A DNA stretch of 64,000 bases from Lophium mytilinum. Lineage: Eukaryota. The stretch is from contig MU004203.1 in the NCBI GenBank assembly GCA_010093605.1, positions 202,391-266,390 of the forward strand, in the 5' to 3' direction. This document shows, piece by piece, positions 1 to 43,600 of this stretch. Each line of letters begins with the position of its first letter. The stretch's first letter is position 1. The notes beneath the pieces are model-generated. The model saw only the letters and a program-made list of their open reading frames with translations, was not told where the DNA came from and made no database searches. Made by a program: the position numbers and the translations under genes.

Positions 1-2870
1 ATTAGTAAAGAAGTTAATAATAGCTTAGTATTACTATAGCTAGGTTATACTAAGAATATATTAATACTCTTTAAGGTCTAGAATATATATAGTTAGAGTA
101 CCTAATAGTGTATAGATTTTAAATAGGATCTCTAAGGCTTTTATACTAATTATAGTTATATCTAAAAGAAGTTTAACTACCTTAAAAGCTATTATTTTAA
201 TATTTCTTAGCTAATATTAAGTATGCTTTAGTAATATATAGATAGAATTAGCGCTATAGTTAATTAAGAAGGTAGTTCTTTTCTAATAGTTAGATAGTTT
301 TAAAGTTCCCTTATATTCTAAAAGATATTTACCTAGAAAGTTAAGGTAGTAGATTCTTTCTTCTATTAATTTAATAATAATTTAGTTAGAAGAATTATTA
401 AAGGGCGGCTAATTCTTCTCTATTATAAGTTTATAAAAAGTAAAAGTCTTATCTTTTAGATTAGTTAGTTACTCTAAGGCTACTAACCCTTCTAGTTTTC
501 TAATAGCTTTTTAGCTAGCTAAGTATAGTTATATTTAATATAGCCCTTCTTACTATAATTATAGTACTTATATATATTAGTATTCTATTAAGTATTACCT
601 TTACTACGTCTACTATAGCCTTAACTGCATTCTTAAGATCTAGTAGTATTTCTACCTTTAAAGGCGTTAAGTTTAGCATTATTTTTAGCGTCTAGATATT
701 TATATTTATTAGAATTAATATTAGTTTCTTAGAAGTAATTATTATCTAATTTTTTATTAGCCCTAGAGATAGTATTAAGGCGGCCCTAATAGTCTCTTAT
801 TCTCTTATACTAGAAGATCTAATACTTATTAGTAGTAGTAACCTACGCTATCTATTTATTAAAATTAAAAGGGGCCTATACTTAGGTATTAATATAAAAC
901 TTAAGGCTAGGTTTTAAACCTACGCGGGCATATTAATATACTTTAAGATTAGATAGAGCTATATTAAGAGAGTATATATAAGTAGCCCTAATAAGCTTAT
1001 TAAAGAACTACTAAGTACTAGTTATCTATACTATCTTATTAAAGTAATATTAGTATTACTCTAGTGTATCTATACTCTTATAGCAGCGGCTAAAGGTAGT
1101 AAAAAACTAATCTAATATAGTAAATTTAGTATTACCTTAGTAGTGCTATTAAATATCTTAATTCTATTAAATAGCTATAGTTCTAGCTATATAGCTACCG
1201 GCTAGCTAAATCTTTTAAGTTTCTAGTATCTACTAGTAAACCTATTAATAGGCGTCCGCTTATATAGTAATAAAGTTATATATCTAAACTATCTAGATAG
1301 AGTATATATTATTATTAACTTTATCTAACTATATAGTAGGAGTTCTTATAAGAACTTTAGATAGTATTATTAGGTAAGGTTCTCTTATAGCTAATATTTT
1401 CTTAAAGACTTATTAGAGCTTTTATATAGTTTATTTTAATAGAGTCTTATTATAGTCTAGTATTAGATAATCTAAGAAAGTATTAAATAATAGACTCTAG
1501 AAGTTAGTAGTACTTTAAGAAGTAGGCTACTACTAGAGGTTATCTAATATATTTTTAATATAGGCGTAGTAATTAGAAACTATAGCTTATAGCTATCTAG
1601 GTATAGTAGCCTACTACTATTATATAAAAGAAGCTAATATAGAACTAAAGAGTTCTAGTTTCTAGTAATTTATTATATACTCTATTATAGGGGCTTAAAA
1701 GTATTAATAGCTATCTAAAGAAGGTATAAATAATAGCCCTTAATAGATAAGCTCTAGATTATAGGCTAGGGCACTACTATAAATAATTAGAGGACCTTAA
1801 ACTAGTAGCTTAATAGATTCTAAAGTAGCAGCCTACTTAGTCTATAAGGCTAATATTAAATTAGATAGATTAAAAGATATAGTACTAAACTAAGAGAGTC
1901 TTTAAAAGAGTTCTTAAAGGTTAAAAGATAATCTATTAGAATAATAATATCTATTACTAGATATAAAAGAAAGCTAAGAGTTATAGAATATATAAGTAGA
2001 GAAAGAGTAGAAAAGAGTTAATAACTATAATATAATTAAAGTAAAGAGTAAGAAAAGAGTACTAAGATAGTAATATTAAGTTTCTTTCTTAAATACTTTT
2101 TAATATCTTATTAGAGAGGGAGAATTCTTAAAAGAACTCCTTTACCTTCTTCTTATAATTAACTTATAAGGATTTCTAATTACTATATAATTATTAGGCT
2201 CTATTAAGCTATAATATTATTCTTCTTACTATTCTACTATTAATCTTACTTTAGCAGCTAATAGAATATATAGTTAGTTGTATAGAAGTATTAAAAGAAA
2301 TAGAAAAATTCTATAGTAATATTCTAGCTAAGAGCTCTTTAGACCTATACTATTTAATTTTTATAAGAATATTTATAATAGGTAGTTATACTATAACGCC
2401 GGCCTAATACTAATTAGGGGCTATTATTAATAGTTATTATTAATTACTAATTAGGTTAATTTTTAGAAACTATTAATACAGCTTAGTATTATTATAATAA
2501 TCTAAAAATTCTACTAATTATAGAAGCTAATATCTTCTATTATTACTAAGGGTTAATTATAAGAATATAGCCTTAGCTAGCTCTACGCTATTAAGTTTAA
2601 GGATTTAATAGCCCTCTAAGAAGGCCTTAAAGGCAGCTAGAACTATAACTAAGCTACTAAATATAATATTTCTAATTATATAATATAAGAATTTAGAGAA
2701 TAATAGATATTAATTCTATATAGAAATCTAGCTAGGCTATATATATATTAGAGAGGCCTATATAGGCCTTAATTATACTAGATTTATATAGAAAAGTATT
2801 TCTATAGTAGATCTATATATTATATATATAATATCTAAATATTAACTATATATTAAGAATTCTATAATAG
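1..2870. repeat. RIP-degraded AT-rich repeat/transposon relic (family not recognisable)
   Basis: Extremely AT-rich, CpA/TpG almost absent, TpA in excess, no ORF >60 aa in any frame until ~2846. This is the classic repeat-induced point mutation signature. Sharp return to normal composition near 2870. Confidence 0.85.
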
Positions 2871-4137
2871 GTAATAATGCCGTTTAAGGTGGCCCCATTG
2901 CGTAATAGGAACCTTAGTACGATGTTATTTTCTAGACAGCTAAGATTGCATGAAGTCAATTCAGGAGGGTTTGGGAGGTGTTTGGTACCGTTTGAGGTAG
3001 CCCAATTTTCTGACGGGAATCTTGGGACGATGGATTGTTCCGGACAGTTCGGCCCTGACAAAGTCGAATCCCGAGGGTTTGAGACGCGCTTGCTACCGTC
3101 TGAGGTGGCTTGAAAGGGTCAGAATCTGCGAGCTACAATGTTAGAAGCGTGGATTTGAAGCGTTTTGTCATTTAAATAACGTCGCAGGAGGTCCCCTGCT
3201 TAACTGACTTGAAAGGGAATGCAATGTAAATGTCGGCAGCGCCTAGATCTTCACATACTGTTTCGGGGCGTTTTGGTAGATGGCTGACACCGTTTGATGC
3301 TCTTCAGAAAAGCGAATGGCGTAAAACGAAATGTTAACGTTCGGGGGCCCTAAACCTCATGGGGGTGATTTGCGGCATTTTGAGACGCCGTTAGCGTCGT
3401 TTGAAGGCCTTTAGCTAGTTGAGAAGATAAAAGATTCAATATAATGCGTCTAAAGCCTTGTATAGAGCGAGCGGTTTTATGAAGTCTTGAAAGGTAACTG
3501 GTAATGTTTGAGGTCCTTGAAAAGGGCTGGACATAGACGACACGATGTCATGGTTTGGAGGTCTAATATCTTATATGGTCGATTGGGGAGGGGTTGAAGA
3601 GTGGATGACGGCGTTTGAGAGACTCCAGTCGGGTGAATAATTGCAGCTATAGTGTGATGGTTTAGAGACCGTGAATTACGAGGGTGCCGATGGGCGGCAC
3701 AAATTAATAAGAATCCAAGGTGTACATGATAGATTTAGAAGCTCGTCATAGCCAGTCGAACTATCTCAAGCCGCGGTATCGGAACAGTAAAATGAATAGC
3801 AAGGGCGTAGGATGTTAAGTATGGTGTCGAGGGATAGTTTCTGTTGTATACGATACTAGGCTATTAAGTCTGGGCACCCGGAGTCATTGCTTGTCGGCTC
3901 CCATCTTGCTCGTTTGACACTGCTGAGATAGGTGGCGCAGCTGACTAGGCGCCAATGAATTAAGGAGCAGTCTGATATTCACTGGCTGGAATTTGTCATC
4001 ATGCTTAGATGTGTAAGACCTCATGGAGTAACCCCAAGCAGTGGTGTATAAATGCGCATAGACTCCTGGCTTGTCCCTGTAAAATGGAACATCTTTCGTA
4101 CTAACATTATACCGACGTATGAGACCATCCGACATGT

Positions 4138-12684: not shown

Positions 12685-13381
12685 GACATAGAGCTTGGAA
12701 GAGCTGGGTTCATATAAAGCAGTTATCTAATATACCCTAGTAGTAGGTCTGTGAGCTGAACGTCAACAGGGCTCATATGTTAGTAACTGCAGGGGCACTG
12801 CATGTATCTAGAATTCTTAAAAGTGCAACAGTGGGACAAATGACCATGAGGCAGGTGGATAGGGAAACTCGATATGCAGAGAAATCCATTCCCAAGAACA
12901 GTATGCGCAAGCACATTGTGGTATATACTACGGCTAGAAAGCACTCTTGGAGTGGCGTAGACTGAAATCGTGCGGCGAGAAACCAGACGTAGGGTATAGT
13001 CACATGACTACTCTAGGCCTATACTGCTCTAGCGTCAAGGCTCAGCCTCTCTGCCTCACATCGAAGCATCAACCATCACTCAACCCAGCTCTTCAAGCAA
13101 TATCTATGTCCCTTTCGCGCCGTAGCAACAACGTTGGTTGACCCTCTTGGCAGCCCTTTCGTCTCTCTTCTTTCACTTCTTAGAACGACGCAAAACGAAT
13201 CTCAGCCTTGCCGATATCTATCGTTGCTTTTGTCAGCCTCGCAGCGAGAGATGCTGTCGACGATGATGTTCTGATGTTCTGACGCTACATCCCAACTCCA
13301 TTCATTCTGCCTCTTCAATTCAAATTCTCATTCCGTCTATGTGGTTTCCCTAGTCAGGCACACGAAGGCAAGGCTGTCATC

Positions 13382-15133
13382 ATGCGCCTCATCAACGTCA
13401 AGACCTATGAGATCGAAGAGTTTTTTGGCTCTGATATTCCCAATTACGTCGCATTGTCTCATACATGGCTACCACAGGAAGAACCCTCGTTCCAGGACTG
13501 GGCGAATGCATATCGCAGTGCGAAAACGTGCCCTGACGGCATAGTAGCGGGCATGCGAGTTGTCATGATCGACCTCAACAAAATTCTCGGCTATGAAAAG
13601 ATCCACAACTTCATCTGCGAATCACAAAATCTTGACGGTACATACTGCTGGGCGGACACCGTGTGTATCGACAAATCGAGCAGTGCGGAGTTATCCGAGT
13701 CCATAAACTCCATGTACAAAATTTACAAAAACTGTGAACGTTGTCTTGTCTATCTGCAAGATATCGAGGTTGAGGTTCTTCTAGAGAATGACGATTTTTC
13801 GTTACTTGTTCAATCAAGATGGTTCGCTCGCGGGTGGACCTTGCAGGAGTTGATCGCACCCGAGCATCTCGTGTTTTACGACCGAGAATGGACCTACATC
13901 GGTTCCAAAGAGCGCTACAAAGCTTATTTTCAAGAGGCTACTGGAATTCCATCCGAGGTTCTTCTTAACGCGAACAGTTGGAGGGCGTATAGCGTCGCCG
14001 AGCGGATGTCATGGGCATCGAAGCGAACCACGACTCGTGAGGAAGACATGGCTTACTGTCTTCTAGGTATTCTTGACATCAATATGCCCTTACTCTATGG
14101 AGAAGGCGAAAAGGCTTTTCAGAGACTGCAAGAGGAGATCATCAAAAAATATGACGACGATAGCATTTTCGCATGGAGCTGTCCCCAATCGTCGCGCAGT
14201 ACCTACCGCAGCATATTAGCGAGGTCTCCTTCAGAATTTGCGAACTCGAAAGGAATATCGTTCTTTGGGTCTAAAAACAGCGAGCCATATATGATGACGA
14301 ACAAAGGACTCCAAGCGCATTTTCATGGGTGGGTAGTTCCAGGGATACCGGACGAATTCGACGTCGTGCTAAACTGTTGGAACTCGGATCAAAAAGCTGT
14401 TATAATTCGTCTGCGTAGGCTATCCGCATATATGCCATTCTACGCACGCGTGGACAGCCACTTTAGTCACACGATCGGCGCCAGTCTATCTCAACAAAGC
14501 ATCGTGAAGGTCGAGTCACGAACTGTGTATGTAAGAGAGGAGATCCCTCTCCCTCTCCCAGTACCGCATCGGTCTTCTCGAGCTCGCGGACTATGTTTTC
14601 GATTCAAACCACGCGGTCTATTGGTCAAGAGGATGTGGCGGTTTGTCAGCGCAGGAAATTGGCAATGCGAACAGCCGTTCCAATATCCTACACACCAGAG
14701 ATCGAGGGAGTTCATGGTTGTACTTCCTAAGGATCTCGCCACCCGACGGGGACTCACAATACCGGCGCCACCTCCGGATAAGCCAATCACTTTTTCCATC
14801 AAAGTATTGCTCCGACGCTGGCCAGAAGAGGAGTTCTTTGGCATGCATATAGAGTTCGGTCAATATCAATGGTGTGACTGGGATGGGGACGAGTTAGTCA
14901 GCTTGTGGGCCAGTGTACGACTCGGTGATCTACCAGAGTCCTACGATCCGGATTATGGTCCACCAGAGTTTGTGTCTGATGGGCCACGGTTAGTAAAGCT
15001 TACTCCCACTTTGATTAACGATGACCTATGGTTCTCCACCTCTGTGCCCTGGACAAAGCAGAGTGGTCAGCTTTGTGTCGACAAACTAGTGCATCCTCAG
15101 ATACTTAGGATTGACCGTCGTACTATTGCATAA
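13382..15133 (+). CDS. HET (heterokaryon incompatibility) domain protein
   Basis: Motifs MRLIN...YVALSHTW, WADTVCIDKSSSAELSESINSMY, SRWFARGWTLQELIAP and RMSWASKRTTTREEDMAYCLLG..MPLLYGEG..AFQRLQEEI. Confidence 0.93.
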   Translation: MRLINVKTYEIEEFFGSDIPNYVALSHTWLPQEEPSFQDWANAYRSAKTCPDGIVAGMRVVMIDLNKILGYEKIHNFICESQNLDGTYCWADTVCIDKSSSAELSESINSMYKIYKNCERCLVYLQDIEVEVLLENDDFSLLVQSRWFARGWTLQELIAPEHLVFYDREWTYIGSKERYKAYFQEATGIPSEVLLNANSWRAYSVAERMSWASKRTTTREEDMAYCLLGILDINMPLLYGEGEKAFQRLQEEIIKKYDDDSIFAWSCPQSSRSTYRSILARSPSEFANSKGISFFGSKNSEPYMMTNKGLQAHFHGWVVPGIPDEFDVVLNCWNSDQKAVIIRLRRLSAYMPFYARVDSHFSHTIGASLSQQSIVKVESRTVYVREEIPLPLPVPHRSSRARGLCFRFKPRGLLVKRMWRFVSAGNWQCEQPFQYPTHQRSREFMVVLPKDLATRRGLTIPAPPPDKPITFSIKVLLRRWPEEEFFGMHIEFGQYQWCDWDGDELVSLWASVRLGDLPESYDPDYGPPEFVSDGPRLVKLTPTLINDDLWFSTSVPWTKQSGQLCVDKLVHPQILRIDRRTIA

Positions 15134-18423: not shown

Positions 18424-19425
18424 CTAGTCCCAGTCGCCGGAAGATTCGTCCGTCCCATTGCTATCTTCCTGAGCGGAGAGGCGGCTGTCCTGGCTGCTAG
18501 ACAGGCGGGCTCGCTTTTGGGCCTTTGTACCGCGTTGAGTAGTCCGGGCGCGAGAGGGTGTCTGAGATCGGGCTGGGGAGGTGCGCCCAAACATCGGATT
18601 GCGGCGGCCGGGCAAGGGTGGGCTGTCTGGCACGGTTTGCGCAGAATGTTCCCTGCACCAAACCGTAAGCCATTCTAGCCCCTCATCGTCCTCCTCTTGT
18701 TCCTCCTCGTCGTTCTCGTCCTCATCGTCATACGAATCGTAGGATTCGGGCAATCCCGAGAGCCGACGTTGCCTCATGATCTCCGCATTGGCTTCCTCAT
18801 CATCCTGAGTCCACCCCCAGGGCCAAATCGCGACATAGTAATACACGGGTTCCTCTAGTTCATCGTCCTCCTCATAGCGACAGTAGTCATGTCGCATCTT
18901 GAGCCCGCGCCAGTTCCTCGCCTTGTAGGCGTTGAGCTTTGTATTCATTTGGTCCAATGCTTTGAGCACCCCAGCGACGTTCATGCAGTGTTGAATGAGG
19001 TCGTTGTAGTTGCACTTGGGGTCGACAAGCTGCTCAACAGACACTTCCACAATCTCCTGCAGTTCTTCCCGCGTAGGGAAGAGGTTCTCCCACCGTAGGT
19101 CGCAGTCCTTGCGGGGCAACTCGCCAAAGCCCCGGGCCTCGTGTACTAGACGCTTGTTTGTGGCAATCGCGTCTGGGAACATGATGCGCGCCATTGCGAG
19201 ATAGGCGCGGGCAAGTGCGGGAGTGTCCTCGGGGTAGTCGATTGGTCGAGGATTCTTAACTGGAGTAGCGTAGTAATCAGCATACTCTCGGAACTCGACA
19301 CGGCGGCCGTAGGGGTTTGTGAGGATCTCTACGACAGCTTCTGAAAGACCGCAAGTCTGTCGGAACAGCGACATCTGACCTCTGAAGGTCCGGGGGGAAA
19401 TCTCGGCAGGTTCCCAGTTCGACAT
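18424..19425 (-). CDS. Hypothetical protein, orphan family A copy 2
   Basis: ATG 19425 (MSNWEPA). Shares PED...YLA.ARIMF...NK...AR...EL...DC.L.W..L with the 15603-16510 protein. Acidic/basic low-complexity tail. Confidence 0.75.
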   Translation of the reverse strand: MSNWEPAEISPRTFRGQMSLFRQTCGLSEAVVEILTNPYGRRVEFREYADYYATPVKNPRPIDYPEDTPALARAYLAMARIMFPDAIATNKRLVHEARGFGELPRKDCDLRWENLFPTREELQEIVEVSVEQLVDPKCNYNDLIQHCMNVAGVLKALDQMNTKLNAYKARNWRGLKMRHDYCRYEEDDELEEPVYYYVAIWPWGWTQDDEEANAEIMRQRRLSGLPESYDSYDDEDENDEEEQEEDDEGLEWLTVWCREHSAQTVPDSPPLPGRRNPMFGRTSPARSQTPSRARTTQRGTKAQKRARLSSSQDSRLSAQEDSNGTDESSGDWD

Positions 19426-19912
19426 TGTATTGTTTTGCTGCGTGGTGGGTGGGCACAGCGGTGTCGGTGGAGGTTGTGATTGTAAAGAAGGAGTTGGAAG
19501 ATTGGGGCCGGGTTCAAGTACTTGCGCCGCTCGAAGAAGAGTTGTCTGGAGTGTGGGTGAGCAGCGGAGGTGGTGGTGGTGGTGGTGATGGAGAGTGATG
19601 AGGAACAAGGCAATGAAGAAGCGGGAGGGGCCTTAAATACTGCAGGTAGTCCAAATGCTGCTTAGCAGGTCGGTGAATTGTGGCGTGAAGAAGGCGAGCG
19701 GGGTGGTGCACTGAATGCGTGCACTTGGCCGTGATTTCATCGGCGGTGGTGAAAAAGTCTCCTCCAAACGCCAGGGCCTGTCAGTGAATCGCGTTGCAGT
19801 TGCGAGACTCGGGACCAGCAGGCGATCGGTGATCCTGTGCTAGTGACGTTGTTATGGTGCGGCAGCCTGGTGGCCGGTGGCCGGTGTAAAAGCGGATTCA
19901 GTCAACAGTGGC

Positions 19913-19918
19913 TATATA
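19913..19918 (+). promoter_or_regulatory. TATA element of U6 snRNA gene
   Basis: TATATA exactly 30 nt upstream of the inferred U6 +1 (19943). Confidence 0.7.
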
Positions 19919-19942
19919 TTTAGTGCAAATTCAACTCACTTC

Positions 19943-20095
19943 GCCTTCGGGCATTTGGTCAATTTGAAACAACACAGAGAAGGTGTGTACCATTCCTCCT
20001 AACACTCAGCTTCAAAACTAATATCTTCCAGATTAGCATGGCCCCTGCACTAAGGATGACACGCTTTATCAAAGAGTAGCTTCAAAATTTTTTTT
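19943..20095 (+). ncRNA. U6: U6 spliceosomal snRNA gene containing a 49-nt spliceosomal intron (19983-20031)
   Basis: 5' GCC-TTCG-GGC hairpin, then ATTTGGTCAATTTGAAAC, ACAGAGAAG | intron GTGTGT...ACTAAT...TTCCAG | ATTAGCATGGCCCCTGCACTAAGGATGACACGC, ending in an oligo-T Pol III terminator. Confidence 0.95.
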
Positions 20096-20117: not shown

Positions 20118-20127
20118 GGTTCGAGCC
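20118..20127 (+). promoter_or_regulatory. Pol III B box downstream of U6
   Basis: GGTTCGAGCC matches the B-box consensus GGTTCGANNC and lies ~23 nt past the terminator. Confidence 0.7.
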
Positions 20128-20936
20128 GCCTAGCGGCCACCTTTTTCTTTTTGCCAGTGAACGGTTTTGAGAGCTACAACAACGCTAACCATAAGCCAAG
20201 CCATAGATGAGCTACGTGCGAACTCGAATAATTCTCCCATGAAGCTATAGAGTCGGCCATGGATTGTAGGGAGTTGGCTTCCTGGAAATGGGAACGGAAA
20301 TGCTGCCACTCCATTACACTGACGAGCGCTTTTCAACATCTAGTAGGTAGCTACACTGAACCTAAGCACGCACTGCGGGATTCAAACCCCCGCCCAATGC
20401 TCCTCGTAGGACTACCAAGGTACCAATTCATCTTCAGCAACATCTCTAGAGACTTAGCCCAATTGGGAGGCTGCCATCACTTCCTGCGTGCTTACAAACC
20501 CAAGCCTTTCACGTTTCCCAGCACCTTCATCAACCCCCTCGAGAGTCTTATATTGTCAAAATGCTCTCGAGCTATGGATTTCGATATATTTTGCTCGTGC
20601 CAGCTCTTCTATTTCCCATTTGTGCTTGGCAAGACAGTTGTCGGCAGTCCAACAGTGCCAACGGATAGGCAAAGTCCTATCCCGCGACAGATGATATGTG
20701 TGTTGGTTGGTGCTGTACATACAGTAGGTCAGTAAGATACAGCATCGTTCTCGCTAATACTAACCTTCACTACGCCCGTCCACACCACGTGGCTTATAAC
20801 CTCCGCTCTTCCATCATCATCTTTCTCAACTATCAGCGCACTCCTCCAACTCTATTCAACACTCCGCTTCAACTTTCTGGACACTTACCATCATAGCTCC
20901 ATAGCATACTACTCTACCCAAAGCAGCGCCTCCAAA

Positions 20937-21842
20937 ATGCTCACCACCCTCTCATCCACCCTCCGCAACCTTCTTCCCAGAAGCCAACCACCCACCACCA
21001 CCACCTCCACCACCTCCCCCAAACTCCTCGGCAAAATCATCCTCATAACCGGCGCCACCTCCCCCCTCGGCACCACCACCCTCCTGCACCTCTGCACCCT
21101 CTCCCCCGCCGAAATCTACTTCACCAGCCGCTCCCCCACCGCCGCACGCGCCCTAATCGCCCGCGCCGCCGTCCTCGCCCCCCTCGTCGTCCTCACCCAC
21201 ATCCACCTCGACCTAACCTCCCTCCTAAACGTAAAAAAAGCTATTACAACGCACTTCCGCAACACGCGCCTCCACCTCCTTATCTGCTGCGCCAGCACCA
21301 ACGCCAAAGACACACTCAGCGCGAACTCGCTCACGAAGGACGGGTATGAGCGGAACATGGGCGTGAACTACCTCTCTCACGCGCTTATAATCAAGTTGTT
21401 GCTACCGACGCTGCTAAGGACGGCGGAGAGCAGGCCGACGGCGGATGTGCGGGTGGTGATGGTTACAAGTCCGGCGTTCCGACGTGCTTCGGGGGTTCAG
21501 TTCGCGAAAGCGAGGAGGATCACGGCGGAGCATGCGGGGAGTTATGCGGAGTCGAGATTTGCGGAGGTGGTATATAACTCAGCGCTGGCGGTGCGTTATG
21601 AGAAGATTTTGGCGGTGACGGTGCTGACGGGGGGGAACGTGGGGTTGGCGAGGTGGATGCTAGGACGGGGGGAGTCTGCGGAGAACGTGGTGTGGGCTGC
21701 CACGGCGGAGAGGAGGGTGGGGGAGGGGAAGGTAGGGAGTGGGGTATATGGGCCGGTGGGGGTGCCTGAGAATGTTGGTTTTGATGGGAAACTTATGGAT
21801 GAGTTGTGGGAGTGGACGGAGCGGGAGTTGAGGAGATTTTGA
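20937..21842 (+). CDS. Short-chain dehydrogenase/reductase (retinol-DH/WWOX-like), atypical motifs
   Basis: Motifs GKIILITGATSPLG, LDLTSL, TKDGYE...VNYLSHAL, RVVMVTS, YAESR and LWEWTE. Confidence 0.82.
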   Translation: MLTTLSSTLRNLLPRSQPPTTTTSTTSPKLLGKIILITGATSPLGTTTLLHLCTLSPAEIYFTSRSPTAARALIARAAVLAPLVVLTHIHLDLTSLLNVKKAITTHFRNTRLHLLICCASTNAKDTLSANSLTKDGYERNMGVNYLSHALIIKLLLPTLLRTAESRPTADVRVVMVTSPAFRRASGVQFAKARRITAEHAGSYAESRFAEVVYNSALAVRYEKILAVTVLTGGNVGLARWMLGRGESAENVVWAATAERRVGEGKVGSGVYGPVGVPENVGFDGKLMDELWEWTERELRRF

Positions 21843-40617: not shown

Positions 40618-43600
40618 ATGTCCGTCCATGCGTGGCGCAACAACCCCTGTGCCGCAACAAATTTTGTTATTCAATATCGTACGCTTTATCCCGCGACTCC
40701 ATCAACCTATAAGTAGCCTAATATTAATTTTTAGGCATTTTTCATCAAGAAACGAGCGTGCAGCCAGAAAATTACGCTCTCTTAACCTTGCTATTGATTA
40801 TTACTTCTAGAGCATCCAGATCAGCAATTGCTTTACACCCCTGCTGCACCCTAGAACTCTACAGAGTTTCAAAGCTCGGAGTAGTTTATTTATAGTTCTT
40901 TGATAAAAGAAGGTATCTTGAAGCTACAAAGCTACTAGGCTCTTTATAGGATGCATTCCGGATTTATCCGTGCAAAGGGGCCCGGAAGCAGAAGTTAGCG
41001 CGGGATCGGATCCAGCTAGCTGAAATGTACTGTGTGGCGCTAAGCCTACTTCATAAAATACAGTATTTCTTCTAGAAACGTCTTTGTTCAATCACGTGCT
41101 GGCTATTCGTGCTTTGTTGCCACCTGTCCGTTGCCACCTGTCTATCGTGCCCCCATTCGTGCCCTTCGTGCCTCTGACACGACGATATGGACCGAGCCAG
41201 CCAGGTACTGGCGCAAGGTCTTCCTCCGGATGTACCTAAAACATATGCTGCCCTATCAGAACATGGCGATGTACCTCGGAGCACGCTCTGCTATCGTGCT
41301 CGCGGACGACCCTCAAAGGAGGACAAGGCCCAACAGCAGCAATACCTTACTGTAGAGGAAGAGAAGGCTCTTGTTACTTATTTATTACTAATGTCTGCAC
41401 TTGGGCATCCTGTTCGAATCAAGTATATACCTAGGCTAGCCTTCATCCTCGCCCGCCAGCGTTCCACGACGATCAAGCCCACGACGATCGAGCCCACGAC
41501 GATCAAGCCCCCAAACAAGAACTGGCCTCAAGCATTCGAGAAGCGCCATCCTGAACTTAAAGCGAGGAGAGTCAGGTCGATAGACTGGAAACGTCACGAG
41601 AATAACATATACTTTAAGATCACACACTGGTTCGATGTAGTTGGAAGGGTATTACAGGATTCGGCAGCCGGGACTATCCTGCCAGATAATGTCTATAACA
41701 TGGACGAGACAGGGGTCATGTTAAGTATGCTTGGCTCTGTGAAAGTCCTGATAGATAAGGCCCAGGTGTGGAGCGGATTGGTAAGGTCCGGTGTTGAGCG
41801 GATAGTCCAGTGTATTGAGTGGATCATAGTAACTGATTTTAGGCAAGGACGACCTACGAGACTATAGAGGCGCCGGTGTCAAACGGACAATGGTAACTGC
41901 TGTTGAGTGCATAAGTGCTAGCGGTAGGTCGCTGCTCCCACTTATAATCTGGCCAGCTTCAACCCACCGGAGCAACTGGACCACGTACCCAACCCCTGGA
42001 TGGCATTATGCACACTCCGAAAACGGATATAACGACTCTAAAATTAGCTTGGAGTGGCTTACGCGTGTATTTGACCCCCAAACCAAAGGTCTGGCTAACC
42101 GAAAACCACGGGTACTAATATGTGATGGCTTCGGGACACATGAGACGCTTGAGATATTGGAGTTTTGCCTTGAAAACAACAATATCCTTTGCCGTCTCCC
42201 CTCTCACACCTCTCACAAACTACAGCCCTGTGACGTTGGAGTATTTGCGCCTCTAAAGACAGCCTATCGCGACGAGGTTGAACGACTAAATCGAGGCGGT
42301 GTAGACACAGTGCGCAAAGAGCACTTTACCTCTCTATACAAGCCTGCAAGGGATAGGGCGTTCACCAAAAGGAATATTATAGCAGCGTGGGCTGCATGCG
42401 GCTTGTTTCCGTTCAACCCAGAGAGAGTGCTTCGACATACCCCCAAACCTGCACTTAGTAATGCCGCTGAACTTACTAGTTCCACTAACGAGGTTATGGG
42501 ACAAAACGAAGCACGGCCATCAACGCCAGCAACTCCGGGGACAACAGAGGCTGTGTTATCGTTGCGTAACCTGATTAAAGAGGAGATGAATGACCCAAGC
42601 AAACAGCTGCGCGTACAGAAATACATACAGAAGCTTGCAAGTGCCACCGAAAGATCCTTTGCCAAAAATGCCCTGCTTCAGGATCAGAATCAATCTTTGT
42701 TCGCGGCTAATAACGAAGCCAAAGTTCGCCGATCGACTAAAGCCATAGTCCTAGGTACAGCGAAGGTAATGAGCTATGAGGATCTTGAGGAGGCAAGAAC
42801 AAAGCGTGCTGCAAAGGATGAAGCTAAGGCGAGCAAGGGGAAAGGTAAACGCGGTCGTCCGCGCCTGAACCCTGTGCCAGAGGAAGAGGAGGGAGAGCTG
42901 GAGGCGGAAGCGGAAGCAGGCAAGAGAAAGCGCAGTCGTAAACGCAAGAGTTCTGCACCAGAGTTGGAGGTAGAGGCAGGCTCATTAGTGCTAGAGGCGG
43001 GCTCATCGGTGGTGGGCTCATCGGTAGTGGTGTGCTTATCGATGCCAGAGGCGGGCTCATCGGCGCCACAACCAGGACAGCCATGGAGGGCTCCAGTGGC
43101 ACGGATGTATTAGGAAACTGCTATTATATTAATATTACGCTTAGATTTGTGCAGATTATATGAAAAGAGGTTGAAATGCAGGTGTGACTTCGAGAGTGTT
43201 ATTTCGAGATGTGTTGCTGACTTGAGTTGGAGCATTATCTAAGCGTCTACACCACCCACAACCATGCAAAATGCTTACCTTGATGACATGAGTAAGTTTC
43301 ACTGTGATCATTATGTAAGACTTTGAGGGTCGTTTTGTCCTAGCCGGAACTGGCAATTGCTTCAGCCGGAAGTACCGACCAGGGTGGCGATCTTGCATGA
43401 ATTTGGGTGCGATAGCAGCCACAAGGCTGATAACGACTTTTTAATACGGTATTGAGGCTCTGAAGCTATGATGAGACCATTTTATGAGCATCAGGAGGGA
43501 CAGGAGCTCAAAAACGGTGCTGTGGTGGAGGATTTCTGTTATGCCATGAAACAGGGCTCTCCGCAAATCAGGTGGAAAGGCGAAAACGCTCACGGTTTTT

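Follow-up and report, generated by a model that had tools for sequence, protein, structure and literature searches.

The window, i.e., the whole stretch of 64,000 nucleotides that was analysed, harbours a gene for U6 RNA. It is the only match that a default Rfam scan with gathering cut-offs finds in the whole window: RF00026 at 19943–20091 of the plus strand, with 59.1 bits versus a cut-off of 44, an E-value of 2.4e-12 and the model covered from 1 to 105. The ACAGAGA box, the AGC triad, the internal stem-loop and the telestem, which define membership in the U6 family, are all present. So are, judged by sequence alone, a Pol III promoter and an oligo-T terminator (Table 1). The transcription start is a putative one, derived from the Rfam model and the spacing of the TATA box; the A box, too, is a candidate, assigned by its likeness to the yeast layout.

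Table 1. Features of the U6 gene in the window and of its surroundings
Feature	Position	Strand	Remark
TATA box TATATATTT	19913–19921	+	30 nt before the putative start
U6 gene	19943–20091	+	Rfam RF00026, full-length model 1–105
Exon 1, ending with ACAGAGAAG	19943–19982	+	Rfam and sequence
5' stem-loop	19943–19952	+	within exon 1
A-box-like stretch	19949–19958	+	within exon 1; likeness to yeast layout
Telestem, 5' strand	19963–19968	+	within exon 1
ACAGAGA box	19974–19980	+	within exon 1
Intron, GT-AG, U2-type	19983–20031	+	49 nt; donor AAG/GTGTGT, acceptor CAG at 20029–20031
Invariant block of the intron	20003–20021	+	19 nt; same in 7/7 intron copies
Branch ACTAAT	20017–20022	+	branch A at 20021; the intron ends 10 nt later
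Exon 2, beginning with ATTAGC	20032–20091	+	Rfam and sequence
AGC triad	20035–20037	+	exon 2, after ATT
Internal stem-loop	20039–20061	+	exon 2
Telestem, 3' strand	20081–20086	+	exon 2
Pol III terminator T8	20088–20095	+	by sequence
Downstream B box GGTTCGAGCC	20118–20127	+	at +176; +127 without the intron

The gene is flanked by an open reading frame of the minus strand without a Pfam match (18424–19632) and by a short-chain dehydrogenase gene of the plus strand (20736–21842); a functional tie of U6 to either of them is not evident. At 20713–20764, opposite the beginning of the dehydrogenase frame, a GT-AG intron of the minus strand is missing from an RNA contig of low depth. Further away, the window contains a HET-domain (heterokaryon incompatibility) frame at 13283–15133, a remnant of a DDE_1 transposase in two frames at 41178–43113 and, at 1–4000, an AT-rich segment (GC 25–36%), which we take to be, probably, a repeat mutated by RIP. 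By its sequence, the host is a dothideomycete, presumably of the order Mytilinidiales. Over the 635 amino acids queried, a protein with a TBC domain encoded in the window is identical to one of Lophium mytilinum (100%); the next relative is found in Mytilinidion (94%).

The intron between ACAGAGA box and AGC triad

An initial annotation had placed an intron of 49 nt, starting with GTGTGT and ending with CAG, between ACAGAGAAG and ATTAGC, i.e., between the ACAGAGA box and the AGC triad. The coordinates proved right by sequence, Rfam and the intronless paralogues, and the position relative to box and triad is equally seen in the sequence and in the Rfam alignment. Because intronless paralogues exist in the same genome, the junction 19982/20032 is fixed: exact removal of the intron leaves no difference to four intronless copies (L001–L004), nor does the spliced form differ from that of another intron-bearing copy, L014. 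From the two branch points offered by the annotation only one survived: ACTAAY is invariant in all seven intron copies of the genome, while the upstream CTAAC (intron positions 17–21) is found in no more than three of the seven.

The insert displays a GT donor with G at +5, a CTRAY branch, a YAG acceptor and the usual length, and is hence classified as U2-type. Shuffling the insert 200,000 times never produced a start of the form GY..G together with a CTRAY branch and a YAG at the end. When the seven introns are aligned, none of the 10 columns of the splice signals (GT, ACTAA, CAG) varies, versus 19 of the 42 other columns (Fisher p 0.006); position +5 of the donor is not part of this count, and copy L014 has lost its G there. 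The length of the U6 intron fits that of spliced mRNA introns deduced from RNA contigs between 10400 and 30300 of the window (47, 49 and 65 nt; a further one of 52 nt has weak support), which counts toward a real intron.

If the nucleotides are numbered via A43 of human U6, which according to a passage in PMC7229813 is the middle A of ACAGA, the intron lies between the equivalents of G49 and A50. It ends three nucleotides (ATT) before the AGC triad. The stretch of U6 that holds the intron pairs with U4 in stem I and with U2 in helix Ia; by eye, the U4 and U2 genes of the genome carry words complementary to it.

The donor GTGTGT is not a common one. In a de novo survey of 264 kb, GTAAGT and GTGAGT dominate the intron-like sites, and GTGTGT was seen once versus 2.9 times expected. 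Genome-wide, AG/GTGTGT followed by a branch and YAG yielded 25 rows versus 6 in the reversed control; they correspond to 23 distinct donors, 4 in U6 genes and 19 elsewhere. Being enriched over the control, this class of donors looks used in the genome. An AAG at the end of the exon favours splicing in fission yeast, as stated in a passage of PMC8163875. The minimum-energy fold of pre-U6, which does not surpass those of shuffled sequences (z +1.05), has the donor base-paired to exon 2, and in co-folding of U4 and U6 the unspliced form of U6 scored no worse than the spliced one.

With its mRNA-type intron, the gene in the window belongs to a known group of fungal U6 genes. The trait dates back to 1989, when Tani and Ohshima reportedly described such an intron in the U6 gene of Schizosaccharomyces pombe. 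That spliceosomal introns in U6 are an established trait of fungi, as had been annotated, is also stated in passages of a review (PMC5855946). According to these passages, S. pombe has a sole U6 gene, which is transcribed by Pol III and from which an mRNA-type intron is spliced. Both are Pol III genes whose catalytic region is interrupted by a short spliceosomal intron; the differences concern site, promoter and copy number. In the wording of the review the intron of S. pombe sits directly beside the AGC triad, not 3 nt before it, and contains the B box; the intron in the window has no match to a B box, which here follows downstream at +176. Further, 14 of 21 copies are intronless here, whereas S. 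pombe has its one gene. Site and position of the B box rule out that the two insertions are the same. The promoter rather recalls that of SNR6 of Saccharomyces cerevisiae, with a TATA box upstream, an internal A block and a B block past the terminator; SNR6 is, however, a single intronless gene with an A–B spacing of ~200 bp (passages of PMC5855946); the spacing here is ~170 bp, or ~120 bp when the intron is left out.

A mixed family of U6 genes

A genome search, in which 48 of 2221 candidates were scored, revealed at least 21 U6 genes above the cut-off. Mapping the intron over these copies, as the initial annotation had proposed, found it at the same site in 7 of the 21 (48–51 nt, pairwise identity 76–94%) and absent from 14. 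The fear that such genes are easily missed by naive Rfam scans turned out to be unfounded: the default scan detects the gene, and all seven intron copies score 55–61 bits, i.e., over the cut-off. Searching the genome with the intron sequence gave seven matches, all of them in U6 genes at this very site. An introner-like mobile intron is discarded on this basis, as copies at unrelated sites are lacking.

A TATA box at −29 to −31 precedes 20 of the 21 copies, and a B-box match within 70 nt downstream follows 19 of them; the window copy belongs to both groups. The exceptions among the intron copies are L016, without TATA and B box, and L017, without B box. The homology between the copies extends ~50–120 nt upstream and ~55–110 nt downstream. 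Since it takes in untranscribed parts of the promoter, the copies are DNA-level ones, not processed ones, and the unit of duplication, as read from the sequence alignments, is a small DNA cassette that carries its own promoter. A processed (retro) pseudogene in the window was rejected for the same kind of reason: this copy has both the upstream TATA and the downstream B box. Over 18 base pairs of U6, 95% of the cells are paired in the 18 distinct rows of the alignment. Changes on both sides of a pair were seen in 6 cells, all in the telestem; each of 500 shuffles, a control blind to kinship, gave fewer.

The statement that this Pol III transcript needs the spliceosome to mature must be relativized, as it does not concern a lone U6. 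The supply of U6 does not depend on the intron in the window, because 14 of the 21 copies are intronless and four of these are identical to the spliced product. Nor does it follow, as had been argued, that an intronless U6 elsewhere would turn the window copy into a pseudogene; its TATA and B boxes have been retained, as have its terminator and the splice signals. The same four copies also deprive RT-PCR across 19982^20032, suggested as a check, of its power: a product cannot be attributed to splicing as opposed to transcription of an intronless copy. In the contigs of one RNA run the joint 19982^20032 was absent, and, the mature copies being identical, it would not have been diagnostic. The run matches Lophium mytilinum and has three well-supported mRNA joints; its contigs also hold pieces of three other U6 loci plus flanks, which may be read-through or DNA. 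A test of splicing is nevertheless possible, as the intron copies L015 (C4:181672), L016 and L017 (C4:297658) bear private letters in their exons; over the first 94 nt, their spliced forms are unlike every intronless copy.

How the intron came to be distributed in this way can be read from the flanks up to a point. Trees of the flanks demand at least four changes of state for the seven intron copies. A single clade of intron copies is rejected by the AU test (p 7e-5 on the flanks, 0.003 with the mature sequence added); without the long-branched L016 the p values are 2e-4 for both flanks, 2e-4 for the upstream flank alone and 0.18 for the downstream flank alone. A starred branch unites the intronless L005 with the intron copies L012, L015 and L017, and the exon-1 types GATACAG and AACACAG are each found with and without intron. 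These observations are pointing to repeated exact loss of the intron or to gene conversion among the copies. The trees comprise 63–123 columns, leave 10 of 18 inner branches open and are unrooted, so that gain is not separable from loss. The simplest inference from the sequences would be that the intron was gained once, with exact losses or conversion thereafter. Exact loss via a spliced cDNA would imply splicing; conversion from intronless DNA copies, however, explains the pattern equally well.

A survey by Canzler, Stadler and Hertel of 2016, as summarized in passages of PMC5855946, covered 145 genomes and counted up to 20 U6 copies per genome; the at least 21 copies here are at or just above this maximum. 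The introns it described are specific to lineages, have canonical signals and accumulate around the ACAGA box and the internal stem-loop; it also described flexible TATA/A/B promoters, and mixed paralogues are mentioned. Fungal U3 snoRNA genes offer a parallel: according to passages of PMC5832005, intron-bearing and intronless paralogues are mixed, duplication was at the DNA level and the intron is judged functionally neutral. U3 is a different RNA, though, and its introns are near the 5' stem, not in a catalytic centre. On multi-copy fungal U6 families, nothing relevant was found in the literature searched, the scope of which was papers outside subscription. Among metagenome contigs, the exact pattern of the intron site had one match, bacterial-gene-like and without U6 context; this pattern demands exact exon ends and is no measure of rarity. 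U6 patterns matched prokaryote and viral collections 0, 0 and 30 times, the latter by chance, with a U6 core in 0 of 30.

Some members of the family have peculiarities of their own. The intronless L021 (C7:859525), whose upstream flank is the nearest to that of the window copy, has a T7 insertion in the core after the AGC triad, which should stop Pol III early; it is probably a dead copy. L025 (C1:1758395–1758449, minus strand) is a lone inverted 3' half of U6, ~520 bp before the intron copy L016 (C1:1758966). L006, L007, L009 and L008 vary in the letters before the triad (ATCAGC or GTTAGC), where the words pairing with U2 and U4 still fit by eye; L007 and L009 have a changed 3' segment in common, and in L009 AGAGA replaces ACAGA.

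Splicing, tolerance and competing readings

Most likely, in our judgement, the gene in the window is a working member of a dispersed family, from which the intron is spliced out to yield the same U6 as the intronless genes provide, and the intron is tolerated. Intact TATA and B boxes and the complete lack of variation in the splice-signal columns argue for a working and spliced gene. From these data we infer transcription, splicing, a single gain and subsequent loss or conversion. In detail, Pol III would make a pre-U6 of ~150 nt from a promoter of the yeast type, with TATA at −30, an internal A box and a B box past the T8 terminator. The major spliceosome would then excise the 49 nt and leave a U6 of 100 nt, identical to the product of four intronless copies; the exonic AAG and the donor GTGTGT would be read by U1, U5 and U6, ACTAAT by U2, and CAG would serve as acceptor. 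The unspliced RNA should be unable to act as U6, because the intron separates the ACAGAGA box from the AGC triad within the stretch that pairs with U4 and U2. The intron would have been gained once, in line with the homology of its seven copies; exact loss or gene conversion would later have shuffled its presence among short duplicated DNA cassettes. It would be tolerated, not needed.

The intron copies could instead be mere passengers, little transcribed or poorly spliced, with the intronless copies supplying all working U6 and the splice signals persisting by recent duplication and conversion. The prevalence of intronless copies, four of them equal to the spliced product, would suit this idea, as would the minor donor GTGTGT, the lost +5 G of L014 and the missing TATA and B box of L016. 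Yet the introns have diverged by 6–24%, while GT, ACTAA and CAG stayed constant. Also, the exons of the window copy are identical to those of the four top-scoring copies, although the 24 nt upstream differ from theirs at 4–5 places, and its TATA, B box and terminator are intact. We consider passengers rather unlikely, albeit the conservation of the splice signals could in part be due to recent gene conversion rather than to selection.

Still another possibility is that the intron serves control. One in three U6 genes would be productive only under active splicing, the level of U6 thereby being coupled to splicing capacity, and the 19-nt block would refold the precursor, replacing the 3' strand of the telestem, or bind a factor. 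The idea as such is raised for species with mixed paralogues in passages of the review (PMC5855946). It could build on the invariant run, which extends 14 nt beyond the branch core (permutation p 1.5e-4), and on the recurrence of AGCTTCAAAA from this block at the 3' end of U6, a 10-nt match that same-strand comparison reached in 13, and comparison on either strand in 31, of 5000 shuffles. The match is, however, unexplained and was noticed post hoc, the conservation of the block may stem from conversion or from the context of the branch site, and the apparent repeated loss of the intron fits near-neutrality. Regulation of this kind appears very unlikely to us. The shared AGCTTCAAAA could also mean that the intron arose by partial tandem duplication of the 3' half of U6 itself and acquired splice signals later, instead of being a foreign intron inserted by reverse splicing, which is the hypothesis of origin in the literature; that the intron sequence is found nowhere else in the genome would agree. 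Gapped alignments of the seven introns to mature U6 gave shuffle p values of 0.008–0.09, but they need long gaps, vary between copies and have p above 0.04 in four of the seven. Moreover, the introns are rich in C and poor in G and in this, as in length and in the 3' end, resemble the U2 and U4 introns and one mRNA intron of the genome, and AAG/A near the active site is a typical context of insertion. Such a self-made intron is hardly credible. The genome is a natural test bed for a question that the passages of PMC5855946 leave open: are U6 paralogues with an intron expressed and spliced, and do mixed families set U6 levels by splicing?

Altered ACAGA boxes and other snRNA genes

Four intronless copies have an altered ACAGA box: CCAGA in L010 (C1:502832) and L024 (C1:55473), CCATA in L023 (C24:165370) and CCGGA in L022 (C1:314841). 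The first A is replaced by C in all of them; promoter and core are intact, and the telestem pairs are kept, partly by compensation. Compared to the window gene, 6–11 of the 27 positions up to the ACAGA box differ, but only 0–1 of 34 in the core (Fisher p 3e-5 to 0.007 each, for 4 of 20 copies tested that were chosen after viewing the alignment). The L023 form was found in a contig of the RNA run at a depth of 5.3. According to a passage of PMC10581693, the ACAGA box is invariant in 240 genomes, mostly of budding yeasts and represented by the best copy per species; if functional, the four copies would break this rule. The literature searched, i.e., papers outside subscription, gave nothing relevant on naturally occurring variants of the ACAGA box in fungi or on the CACAGAGAAG form.

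One might imagine a diversified set of U6 isoforms, composed of intron-gated copies and four with a rewritten arm for the 5' splice site, which, if expressed, would retune the choice of donors (e.g., those with G at +6) or guide other RNAs. We regard this as distinctly unlikely. A dedicated class of introns for the altered copies was dismissed: the predicted donor pattern occurred 5 times versus 3 in the control, none being clearly an intron. Intron-like sites with GTAAGGG numbered 14, fewer than in the control (34), and those with GTAAGGH 136, more than in the control (94); G at +7 is not favoured (0.20 among 60 strong-donor candidates). The tests for matched introns being negative, the altered copies may be decaying ones that are kept alike by conversion.

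Another deviation is found in 13 of the 21 copies, the window gene included (19971–19973): they have CAACACAGAG where the Rfam consensus has CGATACAGAG, i.e., C in place of U ahead of ACAGAGAA. The first U of the METTL16 motif is thereby gone. This motif is UACAGAGAA in passages of PMC7229813 and PMC6162343, which do not test the first U singly. A gene of the METTL16 family is present in the genome (C1:967379–968116), whose donors mostly have A at +4. As the exchange converts a U-G pair of the telestem into C-G, it may be structural.

U6 is not the only snRNA with interrupted genes. All six U4 genes found contain an intron of the spliceosomal type. There are 9 matches to U2, 8 of which were read, and 7 of these loci have at least one intron. 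In view of these introns, the fungus probably splices snRNA precursors routinely. The introns of U2, U4 and U6 are all poor in G (10–11% versus 23% in mRNA-like candidates). A shared origin of the U6 intron with those of U2 and U4 was nonetheless rejected, since their likeness does not exceed that of dinucleotide shuffles (1 of 15 below 0.05) and is explained by composition.

One of the three U5 genes found, L063 (C4:82780), looks by eye like a Pol III gene, with a TATA-like word upstream, a T run at its end and a B-box-like word just downstream. The snRNA genes are clustered: 15 of the 39 genes for U2, U4, U5 and U6 lie within 414 kb of C4 (48988–462786), where 0.37 would be expected, and clusters are likewise seen in C23 and in the first 0.5 Mb of C1. 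Seven of the 18 non-U6 snRNA genes are at most 50 kb away from a U6 gene (p 2e-6), and for 19 of the 21 U6 genes the nearest contig end is no more than about 503 kb away. The contig ends are AT-rich, with telomere repeats at 4 of the 20 ends read.
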